The notes under the pieces are model-generated. The model made no database searches and was not told where the DNA came from. It worked only from the letters and a program-made list of their open reading frames with translations. From sequence record PQ330092: 64,000 nucleotides of DNA; one strand, given 5' to 3'. How positions within the stretch are numbered: position 1 is the first letter of the stretch; each line of letters begins with the position of its first letter. The DNA is from Escherichia phage JP4. Below, piece by piece: positions 38,244-53,736 of this stretch. A program made the position numbers and the translations under genes.

Positions 38244-38906
38244 ATGATGAAATCAAAATTAGGTTTGTTTTATAAAAACTATTTTGTTAAACAACGTAAA
38301 TTTATAAAAAAATATTTCTCTGGTGAGAAGTCTAGTCCTATAATTTTTAAAAGACCAAGTTATAATACTTACTTAGCTGGTGCTAAACAGTCTAAGAAAT
38401 TTATTACTCTTTTAAATAAAAACAAAATTAAAGCTTCTTATGTTGAAACGAGAAGAAACTCATCAATAACTCCTGGTGATTTTATTGAGTACGGATGTTT
38501 CAATATTAAGTATAATGATAATACATACTTTATGGATATTGATTGTAATACATCCAATCTTTTTAACATTGTAGTAAATCCATTAAAACAATATAATGTT
38601 TATGGTGATTCTATTATCAAATTAATCAAAAACAAAGATGGCTTTGATTTTGAAATAAATGTTTTAGATGATAATTTTGACGAAGTACCCGTAAACCCTG
38701 AAATCTGTGATATTTTAAACAGTTTAAAAGGTAGTACCTACAATATATCATCTGATTTAATGTTTCAGTACTCATTAATCCATAAAGATATTGAAAAGTA
38801 TATTGAATGCTCCAGAATTTTGAATTTTCTCTATGATGAATTTAAAAAGAGTTCTAAAATAACCGCATACACTTTGTACAATATTCCTAAAATGGTGAAT
38901 CTTTGA
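38244..38906 (+). CDS. hypothetical protein
   Basis: 220-aa ORF with aaggag SD; last plus-strand gene before the minus-strand array. Confidence 0.55.
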   Translation: MMKSKLGLFYKNYFVKQRKFIKKYFSGEKSSPIIFKRPSYNTYLAGAKQSKKFITLLNKNKIKASYVETRRNSSITPGDFIEYGCFNIKYNDNTYFMDIDCNTSNLFNIVVNPLKQYNVYGDSIIKLIKNKDGFDFEINVLDDNFDEVPVNPEICDILNSLKGSTYNISSDLMFQYSLIHKDIEKYIECSRILNFLYDEFKKSSKITAYTLYNIPKMVNL

Positions 38907-39310
38907 CAAATACAGTACTGGCAACTCCACCGTCTGTAATATATTGTCCAGTACTGTAAATTTGTATACCATCGGTTAAGTAAGTTCTGTATAAAGTTGC
39001 TGTAACATATACGTTATTCATATTCATCTCTATTGGTAGTACACATTTGGTATAGGCTGAGACATCTGTTTGTGTACCTATACCTAATTGACCTGCGTTA
39101 TCGCCTGTGTTATAACCAGTTGCGTAAACACCTAATGAAGTTATAATATGATTAGAAAAATATGAATAACCCAAACTCTTGAGATTCTCTACTGTACAAC
39201 GTACCATCTGACATAAGGGCAAAAACTGTCGTATCAGATGAAGCTATTTTTGTAACAGAAGGTTGTATGTTCTTTTTTGATGATGTGATAATTCTTCGAA
39301 AGGGTAGCAT
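38887..39310 (-). pseudogene. truncated, frame-disrupted member of the MLPF / RCC1-like family
   Basis: ATG 39310 opens MLPFRRIITSSKKN.. which stops after 52 aa (39152); family C-terminus ..GYNTGDNAGQLGIGT..FVKDSPF lies in another frame (39222-38887); family promoter and SD intact. Confidence 0.5.
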
Positions 39311-39381
39311 TGTATCCTCCAAATGTAAATCGTTATTATATTTAGGACAAAAAAATGCCAGTACAAAATACTGGCTTTATT

Positions 39382-40587
39382 TTATATACCACGACTGGGT
39401 ATTTTATATAATTGAAATTTAGTGTAATAATCAGAAACTGTTGTACCTGTCGCTTGTGGGATATAGCCACTCAAATAAACATCCCCTTGATTATCCATAT
39501 ACACATTTGTACATTCACTTGGACAGAATAACTCGATGCTGCCAACTTTAGGTGCATCAACTGGAACTACAAATGTAGTACTTGATGTGGTATTACCGCG
39601 ACCGAGCCTACCATATGTGTTTATACCACACATATAAAGTGAATTGTTAGTTTTAACCGTAAGCCCACCATATGTTAATGAATTTGATTTCATTTCCATA
39701 TTATCTGATATTGGTAGAGTGGAGATTGTAGATAATACTGTCCCTGATGAAGCGGCTGAACTATTACCCAAGTTACCTTCCGATTGAATCCCACTTGCAC
39801 GAACTGTATATGTATTATTCGTGTTGTGTTTAGATACAACCCATGATGCACTCCCACCAAGTTCATAATGTATAACAGTATTGTTGGCTAATGCACCCAT
39901 TTGTGTCCATACTCTAATGTTAGTTTCACCATTACTTATACCAAGTGAACCCCATGTGTTTTGACCAGTGACCCAAAGTGTTTTATCAATTTTCTGCACA
40001 ATCACTGCACTTGAACCTGTTTTTACACTATCCACATTCGTATTAATTGAAGTAAATGTTGATAATCTTGTGGTTGTGTTATTACCAAAATATCCCTGTG
40101 TATTGGCCCCCATTCCATATAGCGTACCATTTTGAAGTAAAACAAAAATACCCTCCCCTACAATTTGAATGTCCTTAATTTGCGACAATTGTGTTGCATT
40201 GAATACTGATGTAAAATATGAAGTACAATCAGTATAAGTACTGACAGTACTTAATCCTGTACCAATAGCTCTACCTACGCCACTGTAATAAAATTTATTA
40301 TCTTCGGTTTGGATTAAATTAAAAGAACCTTGGGCTGTTCTAAAACGTTTTACATTTTGGTATATTAAAGCCCACTCTTTTACTTTCGCATTAGGTACAC
40401 CATTTCCGAATCCATAGTTTTGTGAACTAGTTCCACCTATACCCATTAAGTCTCCATTTTTATATAATAGTAAGAGTGCTGTTGCTGGAATAACTGACGC
40501 ACTATAACCATTGTAAATAAAGATTTCTTTCACTTCAGGAACTTTCATTTTATTTGCGTATTTTATCATCCTTGGAAAAGGTAACAT
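39382..40587 (-). CDS. MLPF-family RCC1-like beta-propeller repeat protein
   Basis: MLPFPRMIKYAN..; recurring (Y/W)xxGxNxxGxLGxG repeats about every 50 aa; aggagg SD. Confidence 0.7.
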   Translation of the reverse strand: MLPFPRMIKYANKMKVPEVKEIFIYNGYSASVIPATALLLLYKNGDLMGIGGTSSQNYGFGNGVPNAKVKEWALIYQNVKRFRTAQGSFNLIQTEDNKFYYSGVGRAIGTGLSTVSTYTDCTSYFTSVFNATQLSQIKDIQIVGEGIFVLLQNGTLYGMGANTQGYFGNNTTTRLSTFTSINTNVDSVKTGSSAVIVQKIDKTLWVTGQNTWGSLGISNGETNIRVWTQMGALANNTVIHYELGGSASWVVSKHNTNNTYTVRASGIQSEGNLGNSSAASSGTVLSTISTLPISDNMEMKSNSLTYGGLTVKTNNSLYMCGINTYGRLGRGNTTSSTTFVVPVDAPKVGSIELFCPSECTNVYMDNQGDVYLSGYIPQATGTTVSDYYTKFQLYKIPSRGI

Positions 40588-40658
40588 AAAATCCTCCTTT
40601 ATTCATTATACTATATTTAATCAAAAAGAAAAGCCAGTGTTAAGTACTGGCATAAAAT

Positions 40659-52412: not shown

Positions 52413-52485
52413 AAATCCCTCCTTATTCATTATACTATATTTAATACAAATAAGAAAAGCCAGTATCAAGTACTGGCATATCAAA
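52413..52485 (-). promoter_or_regulatory. intergenic cassette: terminator hairpin, TATAAT box, SD (representative of 10)
   Basis: Minus strand: gccagtacttgatactggc hairpin + U-run, then ..taaatatagTATAATgaataAGGAGGGattt-ATG; similar cassettes at 39311-39381, 40588-40658, 43019-43099, 45472-45541, 46685-46755, 47494-47565, 48730-48801, 49993-50045, 51234-51302. Confidence 0.55.
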
Positions 52486-53634
52486 TCACTGCAAAAATGA
52501 CATATCGACTTCGGTATAATTAAGAACGTTCTGTCCAGCAATACCTCCCATTACTACAATTGAAGCCCCACAATAATATAACTTCGAAGTATCAGTAAGT
52601 ATAAGTGAACCAGATGGGGTGCGTACCAAATTACACGAAGTATTAAACGAAGTATATGAAGGGGTATAAGAGTACTGATTAATATTATTACCAACACCTA
52701 ATTGACCAGACGAGTTGCTTCCAGATGCATAAAGTACTTCATCACCTTTAACTATATGTGACGCCATGTTACCAACACAAGTATATAAACTATAAACTCC
52801 TGAACTCAATAATGTTGGAGTTTTGTATTGTATATCTGTAGATGAAGAAGTACCACCTGTGCCAAATTCGTTCCCGTATTGTGCACCGAACTGTTTACCA
52901 CATGCGTACAAATTATTATCTGATTTAATAAAAAATGTACTCTGATAACTTACATCAAAATCTATAACATCCGAAGCAATCATCGTCACCCCAGTAATAG
53001 AAGTTTGATTACCTGTACCTAACTGATAGTAATAGTTAAAACCACAACCCCATAAAGTATTATCTTCTTTTAGGTATATGTTACCAACTGCCTTTTTAAC
53101 CGAAGTTATAGTATCTACCCTTTTGAATGTGTTAAAAGAATTAATGTTTGTACCATCACCAAATGATGATAGGTTAGAGTTATTGTTAGCTCCACAACAA
53201 TACAATGTACCATCGTTTGTTATCAAATTTACCTTCATATCATTAAAACTACTCATGTATTTTATATCAGAAACATTAATACCACTGGATGTTATCCACG
53301 TAGTACATTCCGTCCACAAAGTTTTTCTATCAGTTACACCAGTGAATGCCTTCGTGTTACCAGTGATAAAAACTTTTCCAGTACCTTTCTCTTCATACAA
53401 TTGACAATCACTACTGTTATTTTCCAATAGAACTCGTTTAACATTCTCCGCACTAAGAATAAATTTACTCGACGCTACACCAGTTCCAGTACCCCAATTC
53501 GTCGCAGAAGATGCATACAACTTATCAGTATAAGTATCATGAAGATACATGGAATCACTGGAATATATTTTAAAACGTCCATCATCACCAGGGGCAATAT
53601 TCCCGTAATTCATCATTCTAACAAAAGGTAACAT
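52486..53634 (-). CDS. MLPF-family RCC1-like beta-propeller repeat protein
   Basis: Start at MLPFVRMMNYGNIAPG (ATG 53634); first gene of the minus-strand array. Confidence 0.7.
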   Translation of the reverse strand: MLPFVRMMNYGNIAPGDDGRFKIYSSDSMYLHDTYTDKLYASSATNWGTGTGVASSKFILSAENVKRVLLENNSSDCQLYEEKGTGKVFITGNTKAFTGVTDRKTLWTECTTWITSSGINVSDIKYMSSFNDMKVNLITNDGTLYCCGANNNSNLSSFGDGTNINSFNTFKRVDTITSVKKAVGNIYLKEDNTLWGCGFNYYYQLGTGNQTSITGVTMIASDVIDFDVSYQSTFFIKSDNNLYACGKQFGAQYGNEFGTGGTSSSTDIQYKTPTLLSSGVYSLYTCVGNMASHIVKGDEVLYASGSNSSGQLGVGNNINQYSYTPSYTSFNTSCNLVRTPSGSLILTDTSKLYYCGASIVVMGGIAGQNVLNYTEVDMSFLQ

Positions 53635-53682
53635 AAATCCCTCCTTATTCATTATATCATATTTACCCCATAAAGAAAACCC

Positions 53683-53711
53683 TTGACATCCTTTCAGTAC
53701 TGGTGTACTAT
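53683..53711 (+). promoter_or_regulatory. sigma70-type promoter for the small-protein array
   Basis: TTGACA-17-TACTAT about 25 nt upstream of ATG 53737; divergent from the MLPF array. Confidence 0.5.
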
Positions 53712-53736
53712 AGAAGGAATATAAGGAGAACTACAC

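Follow-up and report, generated by a model that had tools for sequence, protein, structure and literature searches.

A tandem array of leader-bearing, probably host-binding virion proteins in an Asteriusvirus-type jumbo coliphage

What use has a jumbo phage for a long run of paralogous genes whose products begin almost identically and then diverge? The question is raised by a minus-strand locus in the window (the whole 64 kb stretch of DNA analysed here), the source of which is an Asteriusvirus-type jumbo coliphage (121Q/PBECO4/phAPEC6 group). A six-frame search of the whole window finds 13 M[LIV]PF sites, all on the minus strand; an earlier sequence-only reading, which placed 13 MLPF-leader genes at 38887-53736, had thus counted and bracketed the array correctly (Table 1). 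That reading assigned 12 of the genes to the RCC1 type. The type stands, but only 10 of the 12 are intact: the census is 10 intact RCC1-like seven-bladed propellers, one frameshifted propeller (g10), one deletion remnant (g13), and one glycine-rich body. The last, the sixth gene (47493-46756), is a non-propeller, in keeping with the earlier reading, in which one of the 13 genes lacked the repeats. Identity between the bodies of array members is 22-44% and the leader is nearly invariant, in agreement with the pattern described earlier.

Table 1. Features of the array in the window; the leader ATG of each gene (g1 to g13) lies at its higher coordinate.
Feature	Position	Strand	Description	Basis
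g1	52486..53634	-	MLPF-leader RCC1-like propeller, 382 aa	Pfam, PHROG
g2	51303..52412	-	MLPF-leader RCC1-like propeller, 369 aa	Pfam
g3	50046..51233	-	MLPF-leader RCC1-like propeller, 395 aa	Pfam, PHROG
g4	48802..49992	-	MLPF-leader RCC1-like propeller, 396 aa	Pfam
g5	47566..48729	-	MLPF-leader RCC1-like propeller, 387 aa	Pfam, PHROG
g6	46756..47493	-	245 aa; MLPF leader, then TNF-like plus glycine-rich body related to the Gly_rich_2 family	
g7	45542..46684	-	MLPF-leader RCC1-like propeller, 380 aa	AlphaFold2 model, Foldseek
g8	44296..45471	-	MLPF-leader RCC1-like propeller, 391 aa	Pfam, PHROG
g9	43100..44287	-	MLPF-leader RCC1-like propeller, 395 aa	Pfam
g10	42209..43018	-	RCC1-like gene with MLPF leader; 1-nt frameshift leaves 269 aa	
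g10 C-terminal remainder	41839..42252	-	+1 frame, open for 137 codons	tblastn, translations
g11	40659..41828	-	MLPF-leader RCC1-like propeller, 389 aa; upstream cassette absent	PHROG
g12	39382..40587	-	MLPF-leader RCC1-like propeller, 401 aa	PHROG
g13 remnant	38887..39310	-	degenerate leader and 52 codons, then other-frame 111-aa fragment	
Box before g1	53635..53665	-	2 mismatches, canonical stem-loop absent; upstream boundary of array	
Cassette before g2	52413..52477	-	stem-loop GCCAGTACTTGATACTGGC and T-run, box TAAATATAGTATAATGAAT, Shine-Dalgarno AAGGAGG, ATG	
Cassette before g3	51234..51296	-		stem-loop and box search
Cassette before g4	49993..50057	-		stem-loop and box search
Cassette before g5	48730..48794	-		stem-loop and box search
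Cassette before g6	47494..47558	-		stem-loop and box search
Cassette before g7	46685..46748	-		stem-loop and box search
Cassette before g8	45472..45535	-		stem-loop and box search
Cassette before g10	43019..43082	-		stem-loop and box search
Cassette before g12	40588..40651	-		stem-loop and box search
Degenerate cassette before g13	39311..39375	-	intact stem-loop, diverged box	

The array is the locus already known from Asteriusvirus as the RCC1-like arrays (121Q genes 234-248, PBECO4, phAPEC6 gp001-010), to several members of which the window genes are 82-100% identical; g2 is 99% identical to an unannotated phAPEC6 ORF at 2434. The damaged members are shared as well. The remainder of g10 matches residues 259-391 of g3 at 43% identity (tblastn), and the frameshifted allele is also carried by phAPEC6 (gp007), UB, and 121Q. 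The g13 remnant derives by deletion from a g4/g5-type gene, of which about 50 N-terminal and about 95 C-terminal residues are left; its 111-aa fragment ends in ...VFVKDSPF, as g5 does, and the remnant is found likewise in phAPEC6, UB, 121Q, and PBECO4.

Profile searches and modelling bear out the propeller assignment. Pfam RCC1, RCC1_2, or WD40_RLD matches 9 of the 10 proteins scanned; these nine are all the propellers of the set, and the protein without a match is that of the glycine-rich gene. Eight of the nine RCC1-type proteins pass the gathering score of RCC1_2 (22 bits) and/or RCC1 (21.7 bits), and g10 has a sub-threshold WD40_RLD match only. PHROG 4219 ('regulator of chromosome condensation') matches all eight RCC1-type members scanned (E 9e-20 to 1e-115), a set that includes the g13 fragment as well as g11 (E 4.6e-59) and g12 (E 2.3e-106), both outside the Pfam-scanned set. 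For g7, the AlphaFold2 model (pLDDT 90.5, 29 strands) confirms a predicted seven-bladed RCC1-type propeller, because Foldseek matches it to UVR8 (E 1e-20, TM 0.75) and then to RPGR, RCC1, and HERC2 RCC1-like domains. The g6 body has the TNF-like plus glycine-rich fold of Pam3 gp24 and Gly_rich_2 (PF21722). Its model has pLDDT >90 in the body and <50 at residues 1-9 and contains no N-terminal helical baseplate-docking domain; only a disordered stretch of about 18 residues, leader and linker together, precedes the first strand, at residue 20.

The feature common to all these proteins is the leader, which reads MLPF(A/G/V/P)R(M/I)xxY(G/A)N at 12 of the 13 sites, the site at 39310 being degenerate (MLPFRRIITSSKKN); the module thus proved as near-invariant as had been claimed. 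M1, P3, F4, R6, Y10, and N12 are 6 of only 10 invariant columns in a 20-sequence alignment, and the general pattern, M-[LI]-P-F-x-[RQI]-[ILM]-x-x-Y-G-N, is kept in more than one genus of the RaK2-like jumbo phages, several in all. A survey of 69 distinct ORFs that bear the leader, from genera other than Asteriusvirus, shows varying codons for Pro3 (CCA 50, CCT 12, CCG 6, CCC 1), Arg6 (AGA 32, AGG 17, CGT 2, CGA 1), Tyr10 (TAT 36, TAC 24), and Gly11 (GGG 20, GGA 16, GGT 16, GGC 1). Because synonymous codons vary there while the peptide stays, the leader is, on codon evidence, a real peptide module under peptide-level selection, and not the mere nucleotide-level overlap that the sequence-only reading had considered. 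Within Asteriusvirus the leader codons of 48 ORFs are frozen beyond codon bias: TTA in 48/48 (46% in the bodies), CCT in 48/48 (28%), TAC in 38/47 (26%), and GGG in 32/45 (10%). Nucleotide-level freezing, as part of a repeated cassette, thus coexists in this genus with conservation of the peptide.

Bodies of RCC1, Kelch, Laminin_G_3/LamG, glycine-rich, and other types all follow this leader, which is found on varied bodies in Serratia phage BF, Pectobacterium phage CBB, Cronobacter phage GAP32, Salmonella phage 7t3, Xanthomonas phage XbC2, and five jumbo contigs from metagenomes. The folds that carry it are unrelated and number at least four: the RCC1 propeller, the Kelch propeller, the LamG lectin, and the TNF-like plus glycine-rich fold. 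When IMG/VR was scanned for the exact pattern, it appeared only in nine jumbo-phage contigs, eight of 348-378 kb and one of 109 kb. In the g7 model, residues 1-3, 5-9, and 11-13 have pLDDT <50 and the propeller begins at about residue 20; the leader is thus predicted to extend flexibly from the fold without being part of it.

In the genus Asteriusvirus a frozen cassette runs from the intergenic space into the gene, in the order terminator stem-loop, promoter-like box, Shine-Dalgarno site, leader. The 19-nt box occurs ten times in the array (nine exact, one with two mismatches) and has 11 matches in the window against 0.27 expected, the eleventh lying outside the array on the plus strand; the 19-nt stem-loop (-11 to -16 kcal/mol), for which 0.00 sites are expected, has 10, all within the array and followed by T-runs. 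These counts exclude chance. The cassette is confined to the 35 Asteriusvirus-type records, each genome having 3-12 copies. The box contains a TATAAT-like hexamer without a consensus -35 element at 16-18 nt; it matches neither a clean sigma-70 consensus nor ATAAATA, the late motif described in CBB. A sigma-70 scan shows no enrichment (80 matches, 73.8 expected). Gene g9 lacks its own cassette and starts 8 nt past the g8 stop with its own Shine-Dalgarno site, an arrangement that suggests that g8 and g9 are probably co-transcribed.

Turnover, which the sequence-only reading had named as a point for comparison with related phages, is evident from the arrays of the window, phAPEC6, UB, 121Q, and PBECO4: slots that are 98-100% identical adjoin others in which a paralogue of about 25% identity has taken over, and the order of the genes has been shuffled. 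Identity falls sharply across the cassette and leader between close relatives. Of 10 orthologue pairs with 98-99% identical bodies, 3 show a difference of 11-13% in the leader and 6 a difference of 28-54% in the 110 nt upstream. The replacement boundaries lie inside the stretch of about 110 nt that carries cassette and leader.

Published proteomics of phAPEC6, CBB, and GAP32 already place such proteins in virions, and the array itself has been described. Mass spectrometry of phAPEC6 virions detected gp003, 005, 006, 007, 009, and 010, which correspond to MLPF genes of the window; in CBB virions CBB_536, 537, 548, 549, 551, 552, and 553 were detected, with coverage of up to 50.7% for CBB_549, and in GAP32 gp001. 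Peptide counts in phAPEC6 were low (1-4 unique peptides per MLPF protein); from a decoration of every capsid hexamer more would be expected. One of the phAPEC6 proteins, gp007, is the 269-aa truncated propeller, and its presence in virions suggests that the N-terminal part is enough for incorporation. CBB bears hairs that terminate in 'tiny terminal globular structures', and its authors proposed that the tail-hair proteins should be among those absent from GAP32; of the six CBB virion proteins lacking in GAP32, four are MLPF proteins (CBB_536, 537, 551, and 552). Against such a link, GAP32 carries MLPF proteins too, and no report of hairs on it was found in the literature.

The array products are probably exchangeable host-binding proteins docked on the particle, and not the 'DNA condensation' proteins of the databases. 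Interchangeable binding domains on a common adapter had been proposed from the sequence; the idea gains support from virion proteomics and because the leader heads Kelch, LamG, and glycine-rich bodies in CBB, GAP32, BF, 7t3, and XbC2. We incline, with some reserve, to the view that the array is a repertoire of tag-docked virion proteins with exchangeable, outward-facing host-binding bodies, of which tag docking, external location, and adhesin role are inferred and an external rather than internal location is favoured. Each protein would consist of a 12-residue address peptide, M-L-P-F-x-R-Φ-x-x-Y-G-N (Φ = I, L, or M), a short proline-containing linker, typically I-A-P-x-P, and a ligand-binding body. 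The address peptide, unstructured alone, would fold onto a docking site of the particle that all members share, so that any tag-bearing body would be mounted on the virion, possibly on, or at the tips of, the 'hairy' fibres of these phages. The bodies, most probably facing outward, would bind host-surface structures and give multivalent adhesion or a broader host range. Cassette exchange would turn the repertoire over: most array genes of Asteriusvirus are separate units bounded by the frozen module of terminator, box, Shine-Dalgarno site, and leader, and this module would supply the homologous stretches through which paralogues, and likewise co-infecting phages, recombine.

The composition of the array proteins is fibre-like (S+T+N+G+Y 46% against 29% in other window ORFs; charged residues 12% against 24%, net charge about zero). 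Ligand binding is typical of LamG, Kelch, and propeller domains, and this, like the composition, was counted for an adhesin role. Against it, RCC1 propellers are not known to serve as phage receptor-binding domains, and in PVP-SE1 and 4MG the glycine-rich and LamG-like bodies have homologues that lie outside tail-fibre clusters. The low phAPEC6 peptide counts also tell against the reading. No sequence homologue of the array proteins was found in any solved phage structure.

Other explanations fare less well. It is unlikely, though worth weighing, that the leader is a T4-type capsid-targeting sequence by which the proteins enter the prohead core, are packed with the DNA, and are ejected as anti-defence or host-takeover effectors. 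T-even internal proteins do combine a short conserved N-terminal targeting sequence with diverse proteins (PMC3012670), RaK2-like phages have T4-like head genes (prohead core and scaffold proteins, major capsid protein precursor), phAPEC6 has an unexplained inner body, and rapid turnover would suit an arms race with host defences. A prohead-protease motif (L/I-x-E) closing the tag was not found, however; position 9 varies (K, E, N, Q, T, S, D), and the leader alignment and codon survey contain no invariant Glu in residues 1-20.

It is improbable that the proteins act inside the infected cell, whether by binding host proteins or precursors of the envelope or by helping assembly as chaperones; the tag would then be what a phage chaperone, protease, or export route recognizes, and virion detection would be adventitious. 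The low phAPEC6 peptide counts and the position of the array among early-type small genes, away from the main structural module, would fit, but the proteins are detected in independent proteomes of three genera, with the coverage reached by CBB_549, and the array is transcribed opposite to the flanking small-gene blocks. Proteins of DNA condensation or an inner body, organizing the packed genome by analogy to eukaryotic RCC1 on chromatin, are highly improbable. The database names ('regulator of chromosome condensation', 'DNA condensation protein'), the suggestion of the phAPEC6 authors, virion presence, and the inner body rod seen in phAPEC6 speak for this role; the name, however, derives from the fold alone, and the proteins have a net charge of about zero and few charged residues. 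Eukaryotic RCC1 binds chromatin through features that the array proteins are not known to have. Sister phages put Kelch, LamG, and fibre-tip domains on the tag and have zero to few RCC1 copies, which an essential packaging role would not tolerate; diverged bodies and slots swapped between close relatives also tell against it. Least probable of all is that the conserved 5' end is a by-product of a promoter, translation-initiation region, or recombination site and the peptide functionless: the frozen Asteriusvirus codons and conservation unbroken from the cassette into the leader would agree with this, but it is contradicted by synonymous variation outside Asteriusvirus, by genera in which the cassette is absent and genes are tightly packed or overlapping yet the peptide is kept, and by retention of the motif from E. 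coli phages to Xanthomonas phages.

More tentatively, RaK2-like jumbo phages might share a general address-tag system in which the 12-residue peptide is enough to mount any small binding domain on the particle. The hair tips on head and tail would then be a possible mounting place, one hypervariable locus would provide a mixed, rapidly reshuffled display of at least four unrelated binding folds, and the cassette would be an addition of Asteriusvirus, dedicated to recombination and expression. In ~150-kb Vequintavirinae (4MG) and PVP-SE1-type Salmonella phages, homologous LamG-like and glycine-rich bodies begin with a second, different tag, M-x-E-[LMA]-[LM]-[LMA]. This suggests that phages more widely decorate their particles with shared body families on docking tags specific to each lineage, a principle not described so far.

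The Asteriusvirus papers already report 11 RCC1-like proteins, tandem duplication, and virion detection; their suggestion of DNA condensation or an inner body is unsupported here. A literature search found no mention of the N-terminal leader that the proteins share, of its occurrence on folds other than RCC1, or of a cassette repeated along the array. Apparently new, then, are the leader as a peptide module, its at least four folds, its predicted place outside the fold, and the Asteriusvirus cassette with its replacements. T4 capsid targeting (IPI, IPII, IPIII, and Alt) is alike in placing a short conserved N-terminal peptide on unrelated, fast-evolving virion proteins (PMC3012670), but the array tag has no conserved Glu cleavage site after it, and the array proteins are uncharged, with binding folds related to external fibre tips as bodies. 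Cyanophage Pam3 attaches a TNF-like plus glycine-rich body to its baseplate by way of an N-terminal helical domain (PMC9608196); where gp24 (PDB 7YPX) has this helical bundle, g6 has an 18-residue MLPF leader and linker, and no sequence similarity was detectable between g6 and Pam3 tail fibre gp24 or S16/T2-type gp38 adhesins.

The promoter-early stem-loop (PeSL) cassettes of T4-type phages likewise join a terminator stem-loop to a promoter motif in intergenic repeats (PMC2839356, PMC4122927). Both they and the array cassette are repeated in a hyperplastic region and lie at gene-replacement boundaries between close relatives. The array block differs in extending through the Shine-Dalgarno site into the first ~13 codons and in serving a single paralogue family; it has no consensus -35 element, probably drives virion rather than early genes, and is unrelated in sequence and confined to the 35 Asteriusvirus-type records.

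Branched multi-receptor-binding-protein systems with N-terminal anchor modules include the CBA120 tailspikes and the secondary depolymerases of Klebsiella phages, the latter bearing a short conserved N-terminal peptide. They resemble the array in carrying different binding or enzymatic heads on one particle through a common N-terminal docking element; their heads, however, are trimeric beta-helix tailspikes on known adaptors, whereas those of the array are small propellers and lectins.

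Translated in six frames, the window contains exactly 13 M[LIV]PF sites, every one of them on the minus strand, in agreement with the 13 MLPF-leader genes (g1-g13, numbered from the high-coordinate end of the array) described in the sequence-only reading. That reading had strongly diverged bodies, the domains behind a conserved leader, and took 12 genes to be RCC1-like and one to be a non-propeller exception; the description is correct. Ten RCC1-type genes are intact, g10 is frameshifted, g13 is a remnant built from N-terminal and C-terminal pieces, and the exception, g6, is glycine-rich. 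Pfam families RCC1, RCC1_2, or WD40_RLD are matched by all nine RCC1-type proteins scanned, and PHROG 4219 by 8 of 8. The AlphaFold2 model of g7, built on a 20-sequence alignment (pLDDT 90.5, pTM 0.87, ~29 strands), resembles the RCC1-like domains of UVR8, RPGR, RCC1, and HERC2 in a Foldseek comparison with the PDB (E 1e-20, TM 0.75). The bodies are pairwise 22-44% identical, and the leader holds six (M1, P3, F4, R6, Y10, and N12) of the ten invariant columns of the 20-sequence alignment. An ARAGORN scan of the window for tRNA genes was negative.

In a megablast search the array region matches 36 GenBank phage records, all from Escherichia/Salmonella jumbo phages of 310-386 kb, including 121Q, PBECO4, phAPEC6, UB, and G17, with patchy coverage at 80-99% identity. 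These matches to 121Q/PBECO4/phAPEC6-type records place the phage among the RaK2-like jumbo phages as an Asteriusvirus-type member. The matched genes are annotated as "regulator of chromosome condensation" or "putative DNA condensation protein"; this annotation, carried by hundreds of jumbo-phage genes, is misleading and can be replaced by a testable structural hypothesis.

The leader is found well beyond these relatives. A tblastn search with a 23-residue leader query finds it in 60 phage records, including Cronobacter GAP32, Pectobacterium CBB, Serratia BF, Erwinia Eneladusvirus phages, Yersinia fHe-Yen9-04, Salmonella 7t3/Munch, Klebsiella fENko-Kae01, and Xanthomonas XbC2; the loci inspected are arrays in which each gene begins M[LI]PFx[RQI][ILM]xxYGN or the variant MLPFPIISN. 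Behind this tag lie Kelch propellers (CBB gp427 and gp429), Laminin_G_3 lectins (CBB gp428, CBB gp431, and 7t3_0120), a glycine-rich body (BF gp377), and further body types of ~220 aa that match no family. An exact degenerate-pattern scan of IMG/VR returned 19 stretches on nine contigs (eight of 348-378 kb, one of 109 kb) and nothing else, adding LamG-like and Kelch-like bodies and a 667-aa protein. AlphaFold2 predicts disorder in the tag (g7 residues 1-3, 5-9, and 11-13; g6 residues 1-9) ahead of confidently folded bodies; this disorder, together with the presence of the tag on non-propeller bodies, led to rejection of the idea that the N-terminus supplies the propeller's closing strand.

Codon usage separates selection on the peptide from homogenization of the DNA. 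The peptide is preserved across 69 distinct ORFs from outside Asteriusvirus, with Pro3, Arg6, Tyr10, and Gly11 varying over 2-4 synonymous codons, which speaks against the leader being only a nucleotide-level overlap. In 48 Asteriusvirus ORFs the leader codons are frozen (TTA 48/48, CCT 48/48, GGG 32/45), against 46%, 28%, and 10% for the same codons in the bodies. These codon counts therefore indicate that the tag is under peptide-level selection everywhere and in Asteriusvirus is additionally homogenized at the DNA level.

Homologues of two body types, the glycine-rich body and the ~220-aa body of the CBB gp430 type, occur in myoviruses of ~150 kb (PVP-SE1-type Salmonella phages and Vequintavirinae, for example 4MG), where similarity begins only past about residue 16-21 and the N-termini differ from MLPF (MEEMLLVGG, MLEAMLTAG, and MFEMMLATS). 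A motif M-x-E-[LMA]-[LM]-[LMA] heads LamG-like/glycine-rich homologues in 4MG, PVP-SE1-type, and many metagenomic phages, and ~30 metagenomic proteins begin MLELL or MIELL; this motif may be a second address tag. Since body families are shared under different N-termini, the tags are lineage-specific, as expected if each addresses a lineage-specific docking site, and the Vequintavirinae counterpart hints at a general design. The gene neighbourhoods are uninformative on protein location, because the PVP-SE1-type glycine-rich homologue adjoins replication genes; the 4MG homologues are scattered among small genes, a context that is likewise uninformative.

Both the array and the occurrence of its proteins in virions have been published before. 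The paper on phAPEC6 speaks of "eleven similar RCC1-like proteins", of which gp003, 005, 006, 007, 009, and 010 are among 62 virion proteins detected by mass spectrometry (1-4 unique peptides each), and describes fibres with no assigned protein on every capsid hexamer and in three tail rings (PMC7247149). In phAPEC6 (MK817115.1) no CDS is deposited for five MLPF-leader ORFs, a 396-aa propeller and a 244-aa glycine-rich gene among them, which leaves both the paper's count of 11 and the search space of its proteome analysis incomplete. The CBB paper notes multi-copy RCC1 homologues in 121Q and PBECO4, lists GAP32 gp001 as a structural protein, and describes 119-nm tail hairs that end in "tiny terminal globular structures", without assigning a protein (PMC5259590). 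In the literature searched, papers on phAPEC6, CBB, Sharanji, fEgEco12, and Eneladusvirus and reviews of jumbo phages neither mention a shared N-terminal leader nor give a localization for these proteins; what appears to be new is the tag with its distribution over folds and genera, the turnover mediated by the cassette, and the affinity of g6 with fibre tips.

A location on the outside of the particle is favoured by indirect evidence. LamG, Kelch, and propeller domains are binding modules, and the composition of the array proteins is fibre-like (S+T+N+G+Y 46%, charged residues 12%, net charge about zero). The CBB authors expected hair-forming proteins among those absent from GAP32, and four of the six CBB virion proteins detected by mass spectrometry and absent from GAP32 are MLPF proteins. 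We infer, with slightly better than even confidence, that the tag would dock an exchangeable set of adhesins onto the particle surface. Sequence searches of the PDB, using g8, g6, the g6 family profile, 4MG gp182, and CBB gp428 as queries, returned no phage structure containing these proteins. The main rival, in which the proteins would be T4-like internal proteins and the tag a capsid-targeting signal, is unlikely: head assembly genes of the T4-like kind are indeed present in RaK2-like phages, and an inner body in phAPEC6, but no conserved Glu cleavage site follows the tag. The (L/I)-x-E-Y of some CBB leaders was considered as such a site and rejected, as its position is variable overall. The phAPEC6 authors' speculation that the RCC1-like proteins build an ordered DNA structure or the inner body (PMC7247149) fits poorly, as far as DNA binding or condensation is concerned, with the low-charge, near-neutral composition. 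The MLPF proteins are concrete candidates for the hairs and decorations seen on hairy jumbo phages, structures that have lacked an assignment since the CBB and phAPEC6 papers; should the 12-residue tag suffice for incorporation, it offers a ready-made display handle for engineered therapeutic jumbo phages.

The true start of the array genes is the MLPF ATG, with the Shine-Dalgarno sequence AGGAGG 6-7 nt upstream. Five genes carry an in-frame "MNKEG" extension derived from an ATG inside an upstream promoter-like box, which accounts for spurious "MNKEG…" N-termini in ORF calls and several database annotations; in the other genes a 1-nt A indel between box and Shine-Dalgarno (TGAAT-AAGGAGG vs TGAATAAAGGAGG) takes that ATG out of frame. 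In g10 a single inserted base (…TCA CAA AAT TCA C|GG ACA…) shortens the product to 269 aa, the remaining 137 codons staying open in the +1 frame. The frameshift may mark a recent pseudogene or deliberate, programmed frameshifting; it is identical in four phages with otherwise differing arrays (the window, phAPEC6, and the relatives L006 and L007), which are too closely related for the open downstream frame to discriminate. The truncated 269-aa g10-type propeller was detected in phAPEC6 virions, which fits incorporation via the N-terminus.

Other paralogue groups occur nearby. On the plus strand directly upstream of the array, two tightly packed tandem ORF families (11 and 6 members) form a second paralogue expansion. 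Convergent on the array is a series of small proteins (~105-140 aa) that have hydrophobic segments; only two of these are detectably paralogous by BLASTP. The series is syntenic with "membrane protein" clusters beside MLPF loci in CBB (gp434-436), GAP32, 121Q, phAPEC6, and 7t3, so that one block accompanies the other. Two more paralogue pairs lie further off.

Coordinates of features in the window and in related records
Feature	Record	Position	Strand
Array region compared by megablast	window	38800-53800	
M[LIV]PF sites	window	39310-53634	-
Upstream box, TGAAT-AAGGAGG form (example)	window	52425-52443	
Upstream box, TGAATAAAGGAGG form (example)	window	50006-50024	
g10 frameshift site	window	42209-42260	
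Two tandem ORF families, ~60 aa each	window	54166-58528	+
Run of small proteins with hydrophobic segments	window	35421-38201	+
Paralogous members of that run	window	35421-35762; 35750-36100	+
Paralogue pair, 127 + 425 aa	window	23549-25455	+
Paralogue pair, 112 + 113 aa	window	27598-28287	+
M-x-E motif homologues	4MG (L029)	6965-7615; 11948-12601	
M-x-E motif homologue	L028	9001-9840	
M-x-E motif homologues	proteins P0020-P0064		
MLPF-leader ORFs lacking a CDS	phAPEC6	3; 2434; 6063; 7325; 14262	

Most array genes are preceded by a cassette. The stem-loop GCCAGTAYNNNNTRCTGGC with a T-run (-11 to -16 kcal/mol) stands before 10 of the 13 genes, and behind nine of the ten it is followed by the consensus box TTTGTATTAAATATAGTATAATGAAT, then Shine-Dalgarno and ATG; the box is diverged in the g13 copy. 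A two-mismatch box without the canonical stem-loop precedes g1, and g9 and g11, which have no cassette, probably each share a transcript with the gene before them. In 35 Asteriusvirus-type records the 65-nt cassette is present in 3-12 copies per genome, and it is confined to these records, being absent from BF, 7t3, CBB, and XbC2; a role as a general late promoter was rejected on this copy number, which matches the array.

The arrays of the window, phAPEC6, UB, 121Q, and PBECO4 contain slots that are 98-100% identical beside slots occupied by different paralogues (~25% identity), with copy number 10-13 and shuffled gene order. The earlier general interpretation of interchangeable binding domains on a common adapter is upheld, the adapter idea being supported by the tag on unrelated folds. 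Of ten orthologue pairs with bodies 98-99% identical, three differ by 11-13% over the first 45 nt and six by 28-54% over the 110 nt upstream; divergence beside near-identical bodies thus places the exchange boundaries within the ~110 nt that hold cassette and leader. The cassette shows a means by which a phage could keep a large, exchangeable adhesin library. Terminator/promoter cassettes termed PeSLs (promoter-early stem-loops) are known in T4-type phages, and the cassette resembles them in its behaviour in gene replacement (PMC4122927); it differs from the T4-type PeSL in that its homology block runs on into the coding sequence.
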